From NCBI GenBank assembly GCA_948468045.1, contig CAOKGO010000003.1:12834-76833 (forward strand): 64,000 nucleotides of DNA. Direction: 5' to 3'. Positions 10,507 to 64,000 of the stretch are shown here, piece after piece (positions within the stretch are counted from its first letter, which is position 1; every line of letters begins with the position of its first letter). A program made the translations under genes and the position numbers. The notes under the pieces were generated by a model that made no database searches, was not told the origin of the DNA, and was given only the letters and a program-made list of their open reading frames with translations. Source of the stretch: an uncultured Clostridium sp. (lineage in GTDB: Bacteria > Bacillota > Clostridia > TANB77 > CAG-508).

Positions 10507-10660
10507 CGTGTTGATGTTATAGGAAAATCAAAGATTTTTCCTATAACAGAACAAAAGGAGCATGATTAAAAAATTCTTTACTTTTTAGATTACTTTATAT
10601 GCTCCGTCTTTGTTCGCCTACCAATTTTGCAAATTTATTACCAAAAATTGTGGCTTTCCA
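10507..10660 (+). repeat. three-hairpin intergenic repeat, locus 1 (H3 of a truncated unit, then H1 and a degenerate H2)
   Basis: GTTATAGGAAAATCAAAGATTTTTCCTATAAC followed by GAACAAAAGGAGCATGA..ATGCTCCGTCTTTGTTC. Confidence 0.8.
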
Positions 10661-10716
10661 TATAATAAAATAAGTAGTATAATATAATTAGTGATATTTA
10701 AGGAGGAAGTGCTTTT

Positions 10717-11337
10717 ATGAAAATTGAAAAACTTACTGAAAACAAGATTCGAGTTATTATTCCTTCAGAAGAATTAGGCTTGAATACAAATAATATTAAT
10801 GCTATGCATAAGGCATTTGAAATGCAAGAAGTTTTTTTAAATATTTTAAAAAAAGCTGAAAAGGAGGTTGATTTTCAGACAGATGGTTGTAAATTGTTAA
10901 TTGAAGCTTTTTCTTCTTCAGAAGATATTTTTGTTTTTACTATTACTAAGTATTTACCTGAAAAGGATGAAAAGAAGAAAAAATTAATAGTAAAACGAAA
11001 GAATTATAATCAAGTAAATGATAAATATTCTATATGTAAATTTGATAGTTTTGATACATTTTGCAGTTTTTGTAATAGTGTTAAGTGTATACATAAATCC
11101 GAAAATGATAAGTTTATTAAAAATACTGTGTTGTATTTATGGAAAGATGTTTATTACCTTGTTTTTAAAAATATGAATATTAATGAAAAAGATAAAAATC
11201 TTATTTTTTCTACTTTGTCTGAGTTTGCTAAATTTGTTTCTTATTCTGATAATTTTGAAAGTAAATTACTAGAACATGGCAAAGTAATTATTAAAAAAAA
11301 TGCTATTAATATTGGTATGAATTTGTTTGTTGATTGA
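10717..11337 (+). CDS. mecA: adaptor protein MecA-like
   Basis: The N-terminus MKIEKLTENKIRVIIPSEELGLN matches the MecA N-terminal pattern. Strong AAGGAGG RBS. Confidence 0.65.
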   Translation: MKIEKLTENKIRVIIPSEELGLNTNNINAMHKAFEMQEVFLNILKKAEKEVDFQTDGCKLLIEAFSSSEDIFVFTITKYLPEKDEKKKKLIVKRKNYNQVNDKYSICKFDSFDTFCSFCNSVKCIHKSENDKFIKNTVLYLWKDVYYLVFKNMNINEKDKNLIFSTLSEFAKFVSYSDNFESKLLEHGKVIIKKNAINIGMNLFVD

Positions 11338-11359
11338 TTAACTGTTTTTTATAATTTTA

Positions 11360-11413
11360 ATGTCCTTAGGTGAACTCTTCTATTTTAGAGTCTGCCTAAG
11401 GACATTATTTTTT
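11360..11413. terminator. bidirectional rho-independent terminator
   Basis: ATGTCCTTAGG..CCTAAGGACAT followed by TATTTTTT, between the convergent mecA and M23 peptidase genes. Confidence 0.75.
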
Positions 11414-11416
11414 ATT

Positions 11417-12469
11417 TTAATATACATAGTTTTGTGGGTTATATGCTACCCCATTTAATCTTACTTCTAAGTGTAAGTGTGGACCTGTTGAGTTTCCTGT
11501 TGAACCAACTGCCGCAATTGTTTGCCCTTGTGATACTTGTGTTCCTGCTGATACATAAAGTTTACTGCAATGGCCATAATATGTTTGTACTCCATTTCCA
11601 TGTGAGATAACTATCATGTTTCCATATGAACCTTTGTAACCAGAAAATGTTACTGTTCCTGAGGCTGCTGCTGCTATTGGTGTCCCTGTTGATGCTGCGA
11701 TGTCTAAACCTGTATGTGATGATCTCCTAATACTACTTCTTACTCCAAATCTTGATGTTATTGTTCCTGATATTGGTCTTATTAGTGCAATTCCAATGCT
11801 TGCTTTTCCACTTGATGTTGTTAAATTTGTATTTACACTTCCTTTTGCTCCATATTTTGCTGTTCCATTTTTTGCAACTGATACTACTTTTGCTGGCTCT
11901 ATATATAGCTTTGATATTGCTTCTTCTGTTGTAACTAAGTCTGCCATATTTTGTTCATATTTTTCAACTATTGATATTTTTTCAAGGTTTGAACTATTTT
12001 TTTCTTTTAGACCATTTACTACTTTTTCCGCTTCTTCAAAATTAGATACATATGCTTTTTCTTCTTGGTCTTCTAATACCGCATAATAACGATAATATGC
12101 TGTTCCTTGTTCTTTTACCTGCTCAAATATTTCTTCATCATTTGGTACAATGTCTTTTTTTAGTAAACATAGCTTGTATTCTGGAAGATTTGCAACTTGC
12201 ACAAATGCTATATTTTTATTTTCTTCTTCTCCATTTTCTATGTATTCATTAATTTTATGTTGTAATTCTGATTTGTTTTCTGTATATCCAACTTGTTCTC
12301 CATTCATATATACACTATAAGTTGGTTTATATAAAAAACCAATTGCTCCTACAATTAAAAAGATAGAAATCATGAAAAGTACAATAAATTTTATACTTCT
12401 TTTGGTATGTACCATTACTTTTTTGAACATATCTACAATCAATCTCCTTTGTATTTTAGTTACTTTCAT
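11417..12469 (-). CDS. M23-family peptidoglycan DD-metalloendopeptidase
   Basis: C-terminal HTGLDIA..GSYGNMIVISHGNGVQTYYGHCS..GSTGNSTGPHLHLEV. N-terminal TM anchor. Confidence 0.85.
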   Translation of the reverse strand: MKVTKIQRRLIVDMFKKVMVHTKRSIKFIVLFMISIFLIVGAIGFLYKPTYSVYMNGEQVGYTENKSELQHKINEYIENGEEENKNIAFVQVANLPEYKLCLLKKDIVPNDEEIFEQVKEQGTAYYRYYAVLEDQEEKAYVSNFEEAEKVVNGLKEKNSSNLEKISIVEKYEQNMADLVTTEEAISKLYIEPAKVVSVAKNGTAKYGAKGSVNTNLTTSSGKASIGIALIRPISGTITSRFGVRSSIRRSSHTGLDIAASTGTPIAAAASGTVTFSGYKGSYGNMIVISHGNGVQTYYGHCSKLYVSAGTQVSQGQTIAAVGSTGNSTGPHLHLEVRLNGVAYNPQNYVY

Positions 12470-12638
12470 TTGAAATTATTATTGTAATAATATTGTAATA
12501 TTTGTTTTTTTGCAAAGAGATTACTTGTCCAATTTCCGTAATTTTTTTTCCTTTTTAAAAGATTAGCTCTTTTTTATTTAATTTATCTCTTTTTTTCATT
12601 AGAACATTTCTTGAGCCATATAATTCTCTATTTATAAC

Positions 12639-61806: not shown

Positions 61807-61903
61807 TGTCTGTCAAATTTTACTTTTTTCTTATTTTGTGATATAATTAACATAATGGAATAGTCCAGAAAACTATTATTTTTTCCTAAAAGGAGGAACT
61901 ATC

Positions 61904-62338
61904 ATGAAGAAAAATGAACTTTTTAAACGGAGAGCTGCTGTAATAATTATCTTATTATCTTGCTTTTTAATGGGCATAGTATTGCTAAATTATGCTGACC
62001 AACAAGAACGAAAAAGGCAAGAACAACTGGAGCAAACTTGGAAATCTACTGTTAATCGCGAGTATGCCATTCGCGACTTGACAGAGCTTAGAGGTCGGAC
62101 GATTACGATAAATCGTTTGTATCTCTATGGTAACTCTGAAAATGAAGCTGATTTGCGCCAAGAATTGTGCGTAATCATATCGGCGACTGTCGGACTTAAA
62201 GAAAGCAAAAATTCATGCTTGAAAAACTTTGAGTTCATTATACCCCAAGACCTTGAAACCTCCGACATAGGAGAAATCTGCGAAGACGTTCTTTCGCAGA
62301 TTGACGGTCAGCTCGATTACATTCGAGCTAACCGATAG
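61904..62338 (+). CDS. hypothetical TM-anchored protein in a GC-richer, CpG-rich patch; two in-frame CGG codons that are NOT frame breaks
   Basis: AAAGGAGGAA RBS. MKKNELFKRRAAVIIILLSCFLMGIVLL.. CGG at 61928 and 62096 is read as Arg in the open frame. The codon usage (CGC, CGG, GCG, TCG, GAC) is unlike that of the neighbouring genes. Confidence 0.5.
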   Translation: MKKNELFKRRAAVIIILLSCFLMGIVLLNYADQQERKRQEQLEQTWKSTVNREYAIRDLTELRGRTITINRLYLYGNSENEADLRQELCVIISATVGLKESKNSCLKNFEFIIPQDLETSDIGEICEDVLSQIDGQLDYIRANR

Positions 62339-62353
62339 GGAGATTTTCTCCCT

Positions 62354-63206
62354 CTATTTTTTTGCCGATAAATACTTTTTCATCTGCTCATACCCCAACT
62401 GATACAATTCGTCAATCTTTTTCATATCTAATAATCCAACCTTTTCACTTTTTATTTTTAAGACTTCATCTGCCCCTTCCATCTCATAATTTGACAATTC
62501 TTTACATAAAAGTCCAATTGAACGACCAGCCACTTCCACTAGATTTCTATCACAATTTAAGTCCACTTCATCATCAAACATTATACTAAGAACATTTTTA
62601 GCACCCATTTCTTTTAATTCTTTCCAAGGTACATTCTCACGAATTCCACCATCAATTAATTTAGTTTTTTTATAAGGGCATGGAGAAAAAACAACTGGAT
62701 AACTACAACTTGCTCTTACAGCTTTTCCAATTTCAATATCATTTACAAATATTGTTTTATTTGAAATTTCTCTAAACTGGCATGATGTAAAGCAATAAAC
62801 AGTACCGTTACATAAATCGACACTTGGAATTGCTAATGGCTTTTTAATGTCTGATATTTTTATAATGTTTTTTGTTTTTGCTATTTTATCTATCAATTTT
62901 TCAATTTGTTTTCCACTATTCAATCCATCTATTACAATTCGTCCTGTAAAAATAAGCCCAATTATTAATTTAAAAATATTCAAAATGTCAACATATTTTA
63001 TTTTTTTGCAGTATTTTTTGAATATTTTATACATCTCATCTGCATTAAATCCCATTGCATAAAGGCATGCTACTATGCTTCCGTGATGATGTTCCTCCTA
63101 TATATTCGAATTTTATGTTACTCTCTTCCAATGCTTTTATTGCACCAATGTGTGCAGCTCCTTTTACTCCCCCACCTGCTAAACACAAACCATTTTTCTT
63201 TTTCAT
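62354..63206 (-). CDS. patatin-like phospholipase; needs a +1 shift at in-frame CGG (63083..63081) inside the GxSxG nucleophile elbow
   Basis: ATG at 63206 after [69 protein letters not shown].. (GGGxKG oxyanion motif, GTSSG). A DGG motif (LIDGGIREN) lies downstream. Confidence 0.85.
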
Positions 63207-63295
63207 AAGCTCCTCCTAACATATACAACATTTTATGAATAAATATGTTGAAACGTGCTTGGTTTTATGATATAGTATTTTTGAAAGGATAAAAA

Positions 63296-63952
63296 ATGGA
63301 AAGAAATTATTATGATATTTTACAAGTTAATAAAAATGCTTCTCCTGAAATTATAGAAAAAGCTTATAAAGTTTTAGCAAAAAAATATCATCCAGATTTG
63401 CAAAAAGAAAAAGACAAAAAAGAAGCAGAAGAAATTTTAAAAGAAATTAATGAAGCATATGAAGTTTTATCAAATTCAGAGAAAAAGAATAATTATGATA
63501 ATTTATTAAAAGAAAAAGAGGAATTAGAAAATAATCAAAAGTTTCAACAACAAAATAATTCAAATAATTCTAATGATTATCAAAATACATATACTTCAAA
63601 TATTTCTAAAGATGAGCTTCTTCGTAGACAAGAGATTATACAAAAGCAACAGCAATATAATAAGCAGGTAGCAGAACAATTAAAACATGAACAGGAATTA
63701 GCTTATCAAGAACAACTACAATATGCTAGACAAAAGGCTTACCATGATGCTTATATTCAAGATTTGAAAAATCGTGGTTATAAAATTCGCTATAAAAAGA
63801 GTTTTAAAGATTACATAAATGGATTTATTGCACTGGCAATTACTATACTAATTTTGTTTTTCATTTATCAGATTCCTTTTGTGAAAAGTTATTTTTGGAA
63901 TTTATATAATGAGAATGAACTCGTACACTTCATTCGAAACATACTTAACTAA
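63296..63952 (+). CDS. J-domain protein with a Q/N-rich linker and a C-terminal TM segment
   Basis: [31 protein letters not shown] (HPD). Hydrophobic segment [15 protein letters not shown]. Confidence 0.7.
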
Positions 63953-63962
63953 ATCAATCAAA

Positions 63963-64000
63963 AAGAACAAAAGAGGCATTTTAAAATTTTATGACCTTTA
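63963..64000 (+). repeat. three-hairpin intergenic repeat, locus 11 (start of H1; runs off the window)
   Basis: GAACAAAAGAGGCATTTTAAAATTTTATGACCTTTA matches the 5' arm and loop of H1. Confidence 0.7.

Follow-up and report, generated by a model that had tools for sequence, protein, structure and literature searches.

We analysed a 64,000-nt stretch of the genome of an uncultured Clostridium sp. (NCBI GenBank assembly GCA_948468045.1, contig CAOKGO010000003.1, positions 12,834 to 76,833; hereafter the window, with positions counted from its first letter) and identified in its intergenic spaces a repeat of 145-155 nt built of three successive hairpins, H1, H2 and H3. The units nearly always stand in a fixed orientation beside the terminators of neighbouring genes, their stems are conserved by compensatory change, and they recur at different positions in related genomes. 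They are probably a non-coding, non-autonomous mobile (selfish) DNA repeat of the REP/BOX kind, confined to a clade of uncultured gut Clostridia that have low-GC genomes of about 1.5 Mb. A limited literature search revealed no published description of a three-hairpin family of this sort. The family is previously undescribed and belongs with the small interspersed intergenic hairpin repeats.

We searched the window with hidden Markov models (HMMs) derived from eight of its copies and then with a covariance model (R1; 152 positions, 46 base pairs). Together, nhmmer and the covariance model identified 14-16 units or fragments, or about one per 4-5 kb, of which 12 lie on the plus and 2 on the minus strand. 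Covariance-model scores reach 178 bits (E 1.6e-46), with good copies between 1e-46 and 1e-13; reverse-strand scoring is due solely to the palindromic H3. A plain 9-mer seed beats 99 of 100 shuffles. An earlier note on this DNA had listed eleven loci, each of which carries the repeat or a fragment of it when the sequence is read directly. Its count of 11 or more was right but too low, since the units at 53072-53224 (-) and 29830-29953 were absent from its list. The orientation bias it reported is evident, and so is the intergenic location: all window copies lie outside open reading frames (ORFs) of at least 100 amino acids. The window has a GC content of 28%, and its genes are housekeeping and sporulation genes, including those for RecR, DnaX, a Mur ligase, Ddl, DnaJ, SpoIIR, YpeB and PcrA.

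In H1, AGAACAAAAG/CTTTGTTCG form the outer stem; the inner stem is GC-rich and variable, and the loop has about 35 nt. H2 has 13 bp, and close to its base lie a fixed G.T wobble and a bulged T. H3 is a near-palindrome of 17-22 bp, TATATTATAGGAAGTTC nnA GAACTTTCCTATAATATA, with one bulged T. The three hairpins are joined by conserved linkers. H1 has the anatomy of a terminator, with an A tract, a GC stem and a T tract; read in the sense of the adjoining gene (H1'), it is a hairpin followed by CTTTTGTTCT. The conserved 5' sequence of the unit is (T)AGAACAAAAG. The two unit ends, AGAACAAAAG... and ...CCTATAATATAA, are not inverted repeats of each other, and inverted repeats occur solely inside the modules. 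A scan for promoter and terminator consensus sequences inside the units gave nothing consistent, and on direct reading a -35 partner for the TATAAT in H3 is missing; the idea that the unit itself acts as a promoter or terminator is unsupported.

Several classes of H1 exist (GGCATGA, GTGGGCTGA and CGGAC..GTCCG), as do several of H2. All five compensatory H1 stems described previously (GGGGC/GCCCC, GGAGC/GCTCC, GAGGC/GCCTC, GTGGC/GCCAC and GTGGGCTGA/TCAGCCCAC) were found in the window. The proposed division into two paralogous types applies to H2/H3, which do come in two types, but not to whole units, as the H1 variants assort independently: variant GTGGGCTGA is combined with type 1 in the 13519 unit and type 2 in the 54999 unit. 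Because H1 variants combine freely with H2/H3 types, we conclude that the units are mosaics of shuffled modules. The order H1-H2-H3 is kept across loci of other genomes, and 87 near-full units were extracted. Tandem arrays occur. Their junctions, in which CTTTTGTTCT meets ATTATAGG, resemble those of solo units, in which TTTTTTAT meets ATTATAGG, and tandem junctions lack the A tract (CCTATAAT followed by AGAAC). Some solo units carry a remnant of the H3 3' arm upstream of H1 (for example, at L060, at L013 and at 10505 in the window).

The suggestion that selection acts on structure is well supported by strong covariation across 100 copies from many genomes. With these 100 units aligned to the model, 96.1% of pair cells hold standard pairs, and changes on both sides are seen in 36 of the 46 pairs (446 cells). 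The covariation score is 0.285, against 0.081 +/- 0.004 for column shuffles (0 of 500 reach the observed value), and sliding the partners by 1-3 columns gives 0.02-0.04. Fitting the alignment to the model tilts it towards structure; a plain MAFFT seed alignment already has the same pair types, and pair 14-60 in it, for example, occurs as AT, TA, GC and CG. Within genomes, paired positions vary 2-4 times less than unpaired ones, and in the most diverse genome 22 of 46 paired-position substitutions are compensated. Coding DNA of unit-bearing species is 65-80% identical, yet H3 and the linkers, including TGTG(G/C)AAT, are nearly invariant across species, as are the H1 feet (AGAACAAAAG / CGTCTTTGTTCG).

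Several conserved features are asymmetric. In 90 of the 100 units the lower stem of H2 has the G.T wobble; across species, H1 has a CGT bulge, and the 3' arms of H2 and H3 contain bulged T residues. Simple homogenisation of a palindrome would erase such features, suggesting that the folded form of one strand is recognised by something. At paired positions G.T exceeds A.C by 172 to 48, or by 82 to 48 once the fixed wobble is removed, and one H3 pair is A.C in 18 copies, that is, a wobble on the opposite strand. RNA folding parameters give -51.3 kcal/mol for the plus strand and -45.1 kcal/mol for the other. Choosing a strand by folding energy failed, as single-stranded DNA parameters give equal energies for both.

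We also observed additional hairpins within or beside the units. In one rabbit lineage the linker between H2 and H3 carries the mini-hairpin GGCGAAGCC (L005, L015, L022, L024, L043, L057, L058, L081, L085 and L100; rabbit MAG (metagenome-assembled genome) CANQAH). It contains d(GCGAAGC), an exceptionally stable DNA mini-hairpin, which would hint at folding as DNA. Other hairpin modules accompany units at 4315-4420 of L062 (reverse strand; AGATTTTCTA..TAGAAAATCT and AGAAATTTCTCATA..TATGAGAAATTTCT) and at 29830-29908 of the window (GGGAGGGATGAAAAAATCATGGTT..AACCATGATTTTTGCCTCCATCCC). The three-hairpin family may be part of a larger mosaic system.

A search of a species-representative genome collection with the exact degenerate H3 pattern gave more than 101 stretches among the matches listed. 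These come from more than 40 species-level MAGs, all from the gut and labelled uncultured Clostridia or Clostridium sp. Among the matches listed, the hosts are rabbit, Hadza and other humans, mouse and sheep, and the genomes include Clostridium sp. CAG:440, Clostridium sp. 27_14 and one closed chromosome of 1.55 Mb. Nothing similar to the units was found in IMG/VR, PLSDB or INPHARED, so that a phage or plasmid origin has no support. In an Rfam 15 search of the window, the signal recognition particle (SRP) RNA and one tRNA alone reach the gathering threshold and the units are unmatched; at E<=10 over 54950-55330, the best sub-threshold match has 20 bits, against a gathering score of 48, and no intron family appears.

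The two ends of the unit differ strongly in their surroundings. In unit orientation, ATAAAAAA comes downstream of H3, and in very many cases a short hairpin rich in GC comes next. Stems of at least 6 bp without a mismatch are present in 52 of 115 flanks on the H3 side versus 5 of 115 on the H1 side. In the 76 arrays with an intact H3 end, the median minimum free energy of the 55-nt flank is -14.4 kcal/mol on the H3 side and -3.3 kcal/mol on the H1 side; values of -10 kcal/mol or lower are reached by 55 of 76 and 5 of 76, respectively. An explicit hairpin with a T-rich tail touches the unit at the H3 end in 46 of these 76 arrays and at the H1 end in one. The hairpin flanking H3 always has an A lead and has a T tail for the unit's own strand in 19 of 47 cases; we therefore regard these hairpins as terminators of the opposite-strand gene and not of the unit. 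In 93 of 123 arrays, the gene next to H3 is encoded on the opposite strand and has its 3' end towards H3 (median gap 52 nt).

In the commonest layout, seen in 60 of the 105 arrays for which genes were called on both sides, the unit is antisense between two co-directional genes. Along the coding strand of the gene, the gene comes first, then its terminator hairpin, TTTTTT(AT), H3', H2' and finally H1'. Since units place H3 against the terminator of a gene on the other strand, and most window genes are on the minus strand, this arrangement accounts for the bias in orientation seen in the window. The sole minus-strand array (52919-53224) abuts the terminator of the sole nearby plus-strand gene, which encodes an AbrB/MazE-like protein of 83 amino acids. 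Units are also found in divergent promoter regions. Purifying selection would be expected to scatter the units, and T-tract contact is seen in 60% of cases; we therefore infer that the tight, oriented abutment does not result from tolerance alone and that insertion is targeted to a hairpin with a T tract.

Other repeats lie downstream of genes or at a terminator site in this clade. A second repeated terminator-like hairpin, ATGAGACAG..(GACCTGTCCC)..CTGTCTCAT, lies downstream of genes at 3610-3638, 13674-13703 and 44985-45014 of the window, and in another species (L087; 6503-6532 and 6712-6741) two oppositely oriented copies of it flank a unit. Possible readings are a mobile terminator resembling SPRITE or a target that was duplicated. 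At L170 (6640-7015), a perfect long palindrome of about 350 nt, made of inverted arrays of tandem repeats of about 16 nt, (GGGGATTCGACCAATG)n, occupies the terminator site at which the window has two units (52919-53224). This suggests that terminator spacers are hot spots for several kinds of repeat in the clade.

Comparison of orthologous positions revealed presence and absence of units. Among 80 syntenic loci of metagenome relatives that carry the methyltransferase encoded at 54181-54927 (61-78% protein identity), units lie within +/-5 kb in two, and the other 78 have none; the window itself has five arrays in the same span. At 52834-53247, between convergent genes for proteins of 83 and 271 amino acids, the window contains a terminator plus two units. 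The same spacer in relatives L106 and L107 holds just a shared bidirectional terminator of 12-19 nt, AAAGACAT..ATGTCTTT, which is orthologous to that of the window. Insertion into an operon was rejected for this site, as the flanking genes are convergent and share the terminator. L062 is filled, with a unit and about 100 nt of other hairpins beside the terminator CACTCTTT..AAAGAGTG, and L066 and L093 have the same terminator and are empty. L019 has a unit in a spacer whose flanking genes have orthologues in the window; there, just 28 nt and no unit separate these genes. L176 has a unit in the 5' untranslated region (UTR) of a BcrAD/BadFG-type gene, and in the window an independent unit stands at another position of this spacer; in L156, 97-98% identical to L176, H3 was lost between 8-nt direct repeats.

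Copies within a genome can be very similar. One Hadza MAG has eight units on eight contigs that are 94-99% identical, and one rabbit MAG has four that are 95-99% identical; between genomes, identity is about 79%. The window copies are older and more diverse than these young sets, and some have broken stems (for example, those at 13384, 12635 and 57068). In young copies the similarity starts at GAAC, preceded by (T)A, and ends with CCTATAATATAA, which is followed by 4-5 more As and the hairpin. The junctions are T-rich, with TTTTTTAT or TTGTTCT before the unit, and show no single fixed motif; T(n)ATAT is present on both sides in two old filled/empty pairs. Short-read metagenome contigs of the window's own species end inside units (L001/L002, corresponding to window position 46560; L188/L189, corresponding to 53013, 52957, 55201 and 55138), as expected of multi-copy DNA.

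Given their lineage restriction, non-orthologous positions, empty sites, within-genome homogeneity, decay and lack of coding capacity, we read the units as a selfish repeat of the REP/BIME/BOX type. Compensated stems together with an invariant H3 and invariant H1 feet fit elements that must fold and be recognised sequence-specifically to be copied. The earlier note had left the choice between a BOX/REP/Correia-like repeat family and a repeated structured RNA. We found the family to be lineage-wide; the repeat-family half of the proposal is favoured and the RNA half is the weaker. The note could match the repeat to no named family, in keeping with the absence of an Rfam match. It also considered that the units could be the ends of an ordinary insertion sequence (IS); within the DNA examined they are not, and the genes between and around them are housekeeping genes.

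We propose that the hairpins, with the bulges and the wobble conserved in them, would be recognised by a trans-acting enzyme, and that single-stranded DNA is its most plausible substrate. The most obvious candidate is an HUH/Y1-type enzyme (RAYT- or IS200/IS605-like; PMC6006769, PMC3479197), another hairpin-recognising enzyme being the alternative. Such an enzyme may take host terminator hairpins as mimics of the element's own H1 end, because H1' has the same shape of hairpin and T tract. Insertion would then occur in a fixed orientation at the outer edge of the terminator T tract, and copies would decay afterwards. That so small an element actively targets intrinsic terminators, with a single-strand enzyme inserting the unit about 8-9 nt from the stem in one orientation, is a tentative proposal that we consider possible rather than probable.

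No candidate for a mobilising enzyme was found near the units. Clustering of 1,011 ORFs beside units revealed no enriched family and no transposase, integrase or reverse transcriptase, and none of these was seen in the annotated regions of the window. Genes lying between inverted pairs of units include dapA, dapB, a two-component system, MscS, SigA and DnaG; we rejected the units as IS ends, as these are housekeeping genes. A weak RAYT-like match proved to be ribosomal protein S18 next to SSB, and a weak, below-cutoff match to the IS110 DEDD domain, in an ORF of 1,497 amino acids, was judged spurious (the protein is of the BcrAD/BadFG CoA-activase type).

Several observations weigh against a mobile DNA repeat placed in this way. 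A phmmer search of 5,012 six-frame ORFs from 1.47 Mb with Y1/RAYT queries (approximate TnpA sequences of IS200 and IS608 and an approximate E. coli RAYT) gave no real match. There is no clean target-site signature: the 5' flank of young copies is often TATAA or ATA, and no duplication of fixed length is seen. No insertion polymorphism was detected between close strains, the contigs with identical flanking proteins all representing the same strain with the same units (99.9-100% identical). In the filled/empty pair L088/L104 the flanking hairpin is present in the filled site alone, and the copy in the 5' UTR at L176 has no terminator. The strand that has the G.T wobble and folds better is usually the template of the neighbouring genes, which predicts the leading-strand template; this conflicts with the lagging-strand rule of IS200/IS605, unless the active strand is the complement. 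Finally, a host function would likewise be compatible with how strongly the sequences of H3 and the linkers are conserved across species.

Such a host function is the first of the alternatives. The units may have been domesticated as DNA or RNA punctuation behind terminators, with their spread a by-product, and may serve in fail-safe termination or insulation (through the H1' hairpin and the CTTTTGTTCT after it), in protection of transcript 3' ends, or in binding of nucleoid proteins, topoisomerase or other proteins. Protein-binding roles have been reported for E. coli BIMEs. Domestication would suit the fixed placement directly behind terminators, the predominance of arrays between co-directional genes, the near-invariance of H3 and linkers at the divergence of coding DNA noted above, the protection of stems even within genomes, and the terminator-like H1. 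We nevertheless consider it unlikely, as 78 of the 80 syntenic loci do without units and empty sites have plain terminators; moreover, unit positions differ between species, homogeneity within genomes points to recent bursts, old window copies have broken stems, and divergent promoter regions and a 5' UTR contain units as well. A multi-copy structured RNA transcribed from H1 to H3, either a family of small RNA genes or a cis-acting UTR element, could explain the strong covariation, the excess of G.U-compatible over A.C pairs and the better folding of the plus strand with RNA parameters. The unit at L176 is even sense-oriented within the 5' UTR, downstream of a promoter (TTGACA..TATAAAAT), and some units begin directly after a co-oriented stop codon. 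Yet no conserved promoter precedes H1, the 5' flank being unconserved beyond (T)A, and no terminator of the unit's own is evident, given a downstream hairpin with a T tail in 19 of 47. Between co-directional genes, about 78% of copies are antisense, behind the upstream terminator. The A.C pair in H3, the equal folding of both strands as single-stranded DNA, the missing Rfam match, and tandem arrays and truncated copies, which are atypical of RNA genes, also make an RNA of this kind rather improbable.

Two further explanations invoke other kinds of mobility. An element resembling short interspersed elements (SINEs) would be an H1-to-H3 RNA with an A-rich 3' end, reverse transcribed by target priming on a nicked terminator T tract and leaving 5'-truncated copies. 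The A-rich end ATATAAAAAA does abut the T tract in a fixed orientation, and in the less biased sets partial copies that keep H3 without H1 number about 13, versus 4 of the converse; this count is itself biased, as H3 is easier to detect and was the search pattern. Tandem junctions without an A tract, the fact that the first As of the tract belong to the H3 palindrome, the absence of a reverse transcriptase near units or in the window and the lack of an evident unit promoter leave retroposition very unlikely. Alternatively, H3 could be two abutted terminal inverted repeats of an ordinary MITE (a miniature transposable element with inverted repeats) or a DDE-type IS, since a 17-bp inverted repeat with a 3-nt spacer resembles an IS circle junction; the remnants of the H3 3' arm upstream of H1 in some solo units would agree with this. 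The two ends of the unit are not mutual inverted repeats, however, and target-site duplications are not consistent. The loop of H3 is partly conserved (nnA) rather than random flanking DNA, units have no IS or transposase between or beside them, and plasmid, phage and viral collections contain nothing similar. We give this explanation very little credence.

Among described families, the mobile repeat that we favour is closest in architecture to the pneumococcal BOX and SPRITE repeats (PMC3049150), to BIME/REP of E. coli and to the REPINs of Pseudomonas (PMC3116915). BOX of S. pneumoniae (boxA-boxB-boxC) is also a modular non-coding intergenic repeat of a Firmicute, of about 100-200 nt, with hairpin modules missing or repeated, interspersed and clustered with other repeats, and with an uncertain mobilising enzyme (PMC3049150). 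The likeness is one of architecture only, with no apparent sequence relationship: the terminal inverted repeats boxA and boxC pair with each other, whereas here each module forms its own hairpin, and BOX has no reported fixed-orientation abutment to terminators (PMC3049150). The SPRITE repeat is likewise terminator-like and enriched near gene 3' ends, and H1 shares its A tract, stem and T tract; unlike our units, it is a single long stem with a U-rich tract that may itself terminate transcription (PMC3049150). The units instead adjoin an independent, pre-existing host terminator and have two further hairpins.

REPs are best known from Proteobacteria. Similar to REP, BIME and REPIN-RAYT systems, the units are extragenic imperfect palindromes with conserved bulges and compensatory stems, form mosaic clusters and within-genome families, and fit a logic of single-strand hairpin recognition (PMC3116915, PMC3337134, PMC3479197). 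They are short and high in copy number, and H1 has the geometry of a REPIN, with two inverted arms of about 20 nt around a spacer. The GTAG-type 5' motif is not in the unit consensus. The units also differ from REPs in having three different hairpins in place of one repeated palindrome, and no RAYT was found; REPs, in turn, are not tied to the edge of a terminator T tract. Members of the IS200/IS605 family have subterminal hairpins at both ends, without terminal inverted repeats or obvious target duplication, and insert in an orientation-specific manner next to a short T-rich motif through single-stranded DNA (PMC6006769). The units resemble them in these respects, with hairpins H1 and H3 at the two ends, bulged T residues and G.T wobble. 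Unlike those elements, they show no TnpA (Y1) or TnpB, their hairpins reach the very ends, and they are associated with terminator hairpins and not with a fixed tetranucleotide.

To our knowledge, terminator-directed insertion is otherwise limited to group IIC introns. These introns insert directly downstream of a terminator (an inverted repeat followed by Ts) in a fixed orientation (PMC1702495, PMC4748821), which shows that insertion can be directed to terminator hairpins on DNA (PMC1702495). The resemblance lies in targeting only, in the choice of a site just downstream of a terminator, as units of 145-155 nt, against more than about 600 nt for such introns, have no ribozyme domains, GUGYG...AY ends, reverse transcriptase ORF or Rfam intron match. 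Classical MITE features, namely terminal inverted repeats and a parent IS with the same termini, were not seen in the DNA examined. The units are also unlike integron attC sites: on direct reading the H1 feet AGAACAAAAG/CTTTGTTCG lack R''/R' cores (RYYYAAC ... GTTRRRY), and units lie between housekeeping genes genome-wide.

The window copies range from full units to fragments. A solo type 2 H3 hairpin, GTTATAGGAAAATC aaa GATTTTTCCTATAAC, lies at 10505-10552 (+; model of H2 and H3, h23 HMM 34-82, E 8e-8), with the next unit, an H1 with a GGAGC/GCTCC stem and a decayed H2 but no H3, directly after it at 10545-10664 (+; 60 bits, E 3e-14). The full type 2 unit at 12635-12789 (+; 114 bits) has the H3 variant TTGTATAGG..CTATACAA and is followed by an A tract and a hairpin at 12790-12836. 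A decayed full-length type 2 unit with a short H3 at 13384-13526 (+; 59 bits) is in tandem with a full unit at 13519-13674 (+; 145 bits), which combines the H1 variant GTGGGCTGA/TCAGCCCAC with type 1 H2/H3. The intrinsic-terminator-like hairpin GAGACAG..CTGTCTC of the PcrA/UvrD-type gene at 13707-15416 (-) follows at 13674-13703 (-), and its T tract runs into H3 of the 13519 unit.

At 29675-29782 (+; 86 bits) we identified H2 and H3 without H1, followed by AAAAAAA and a hairpin at 29787-29826. The degenerate unit at 29830-29953 (+; 41 bits) begins with a different long hairpin, GGGAGGGATG..CCTCCATCCC, and ends with a type-1-like H3 at 29909-29950. Two more remnants are a fragment at 34571-34615 (+; found by HMM), with a type 1 H2 and the linker GTGGAACGCTTTATATTAT but neither H1 nor H3, and a decayed H2 with a type 2 H3 at 39684-39753 (+), where a remnant of the H1 3' arm, TCTTTGTT, is left at 39667. 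A full type 1 unit with H1 GGGGCAT/ATGCCCC lies at 46455-46605 (+; 155 bits), upstream of the UDP-glucose pyrophosphorylase-family gene at 45063-46304 (-).

The pre-existing bidirectional terminator AAAAAAAGAGACATAT..ATATGTCTCTTTTTT of the 83-amino-acid AbrB/MazE-like gene, at 52868-52920 (+), has its T tract abutting H3 of the full type 1 unit at 52919-53070 (-), the top-scoring copy of the window (178 bits, E 1.6e-46). In tandem with it is a full type 2 unit at 53072-53224 (-; 101 bits). A second tandem array comprises a full unit with the H1 variant GTGGGCTGA and type 2 H2/H3 at 54999-55151 (+; 107 bits) and a full type 1 unit at 55144-55294 (+; 151 bits), with CCTATAAC meeting AGAACAAAAG at the junction. 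The type 2 unit at 57068-57197 (+; 76 bits) retains H1, H2 and the 5' arm of H3, and the 5' part of a last H1, at 63963-64000 (+; E 2.6e-4), is cut by the window end. H3 of the 57068 unit is interrupted by a 35-nt tandem repeat at 57200-57306 (3.1 copies, 97% matches, TGGGTCATTCAGTGCCTGTCCCAATTATGCCCAAA), part of which (TGTCC.AATTATGCC) is single-copy in relatives (L176). This repeat lies just upstream of a promoter-like sequence, TTGACA-17-TAAAAT (57329-57357), and of a BcrAD/BadFG + DUF2229 gene.

Other features of the window were observed. Stretches of low complexity and extremely high AT content, with degenerate tandem repeats of short length (families D1, D5 and D6), occur at 55300-56400, in the long spacer after the 54999-55294 array, and at 18356-20251, inside an ORF of 631 amino acids. 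Each of at least five genes is divided between two ORFs that differ in frame, namely an EPSP-synthase-family gene, PcrA/UvrD, a D-Ala-D-Ala ligase, a VanW-type gene and one other (48343-49041/49064-49603, 13707-15416/15490-16014, 25630-26310/26318-26641, 30371-31726/31587-32075 and 34658-35374/35358-35759). The split genes are single ORFs in relatives L029, L019, L014 and L058. An independent metagenome contig, 99.98% identical over 17 kb, has the same split in the D-Ala-D-Ala ligase; thus, the frameshifts look real, and they suggest pseudogenisation or genome decay, or possibly recoding. The SRP RNA (38575-38670, -), the tRNA (40353-40425, +), dnaX (36807-38474, -) and recR (35787-36386, -) are grouped, as they are near the replication origin in many Firmicutes. 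The cumulative GC skew falls across 1-56 kb of the window, and no dnaA was seen in it. We judge it probable that the window belongs to a single replichore and is fairly close to oriC.

The host clade is uncultured and abundant in gut metagenomes of humans, rabbits, mice and ruminants, and a repeat as dense as this one is in the window is a substantial feature of a genome. It fragments short-read assemblies of these MAGs and is usable as a marker for strain typing and lineage. Strict placement at terminators in one orientation is unusual among small bacterial repeats, and it raises the question of an enzyme that reads the terminator hairpin on DNA. If the targeting is enzymatic, it would represent an undiscovered hairpin-directed DNA insertion activity, of interest as a tool. 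The family would then be the first terminator-directed DNA repeat of 150 nt, implying an undescribed HUH-type or other enzyme in gut Clostridia. If the placement is instead selected, the units would be candidate transcription insulators in genomes of 28% GC.

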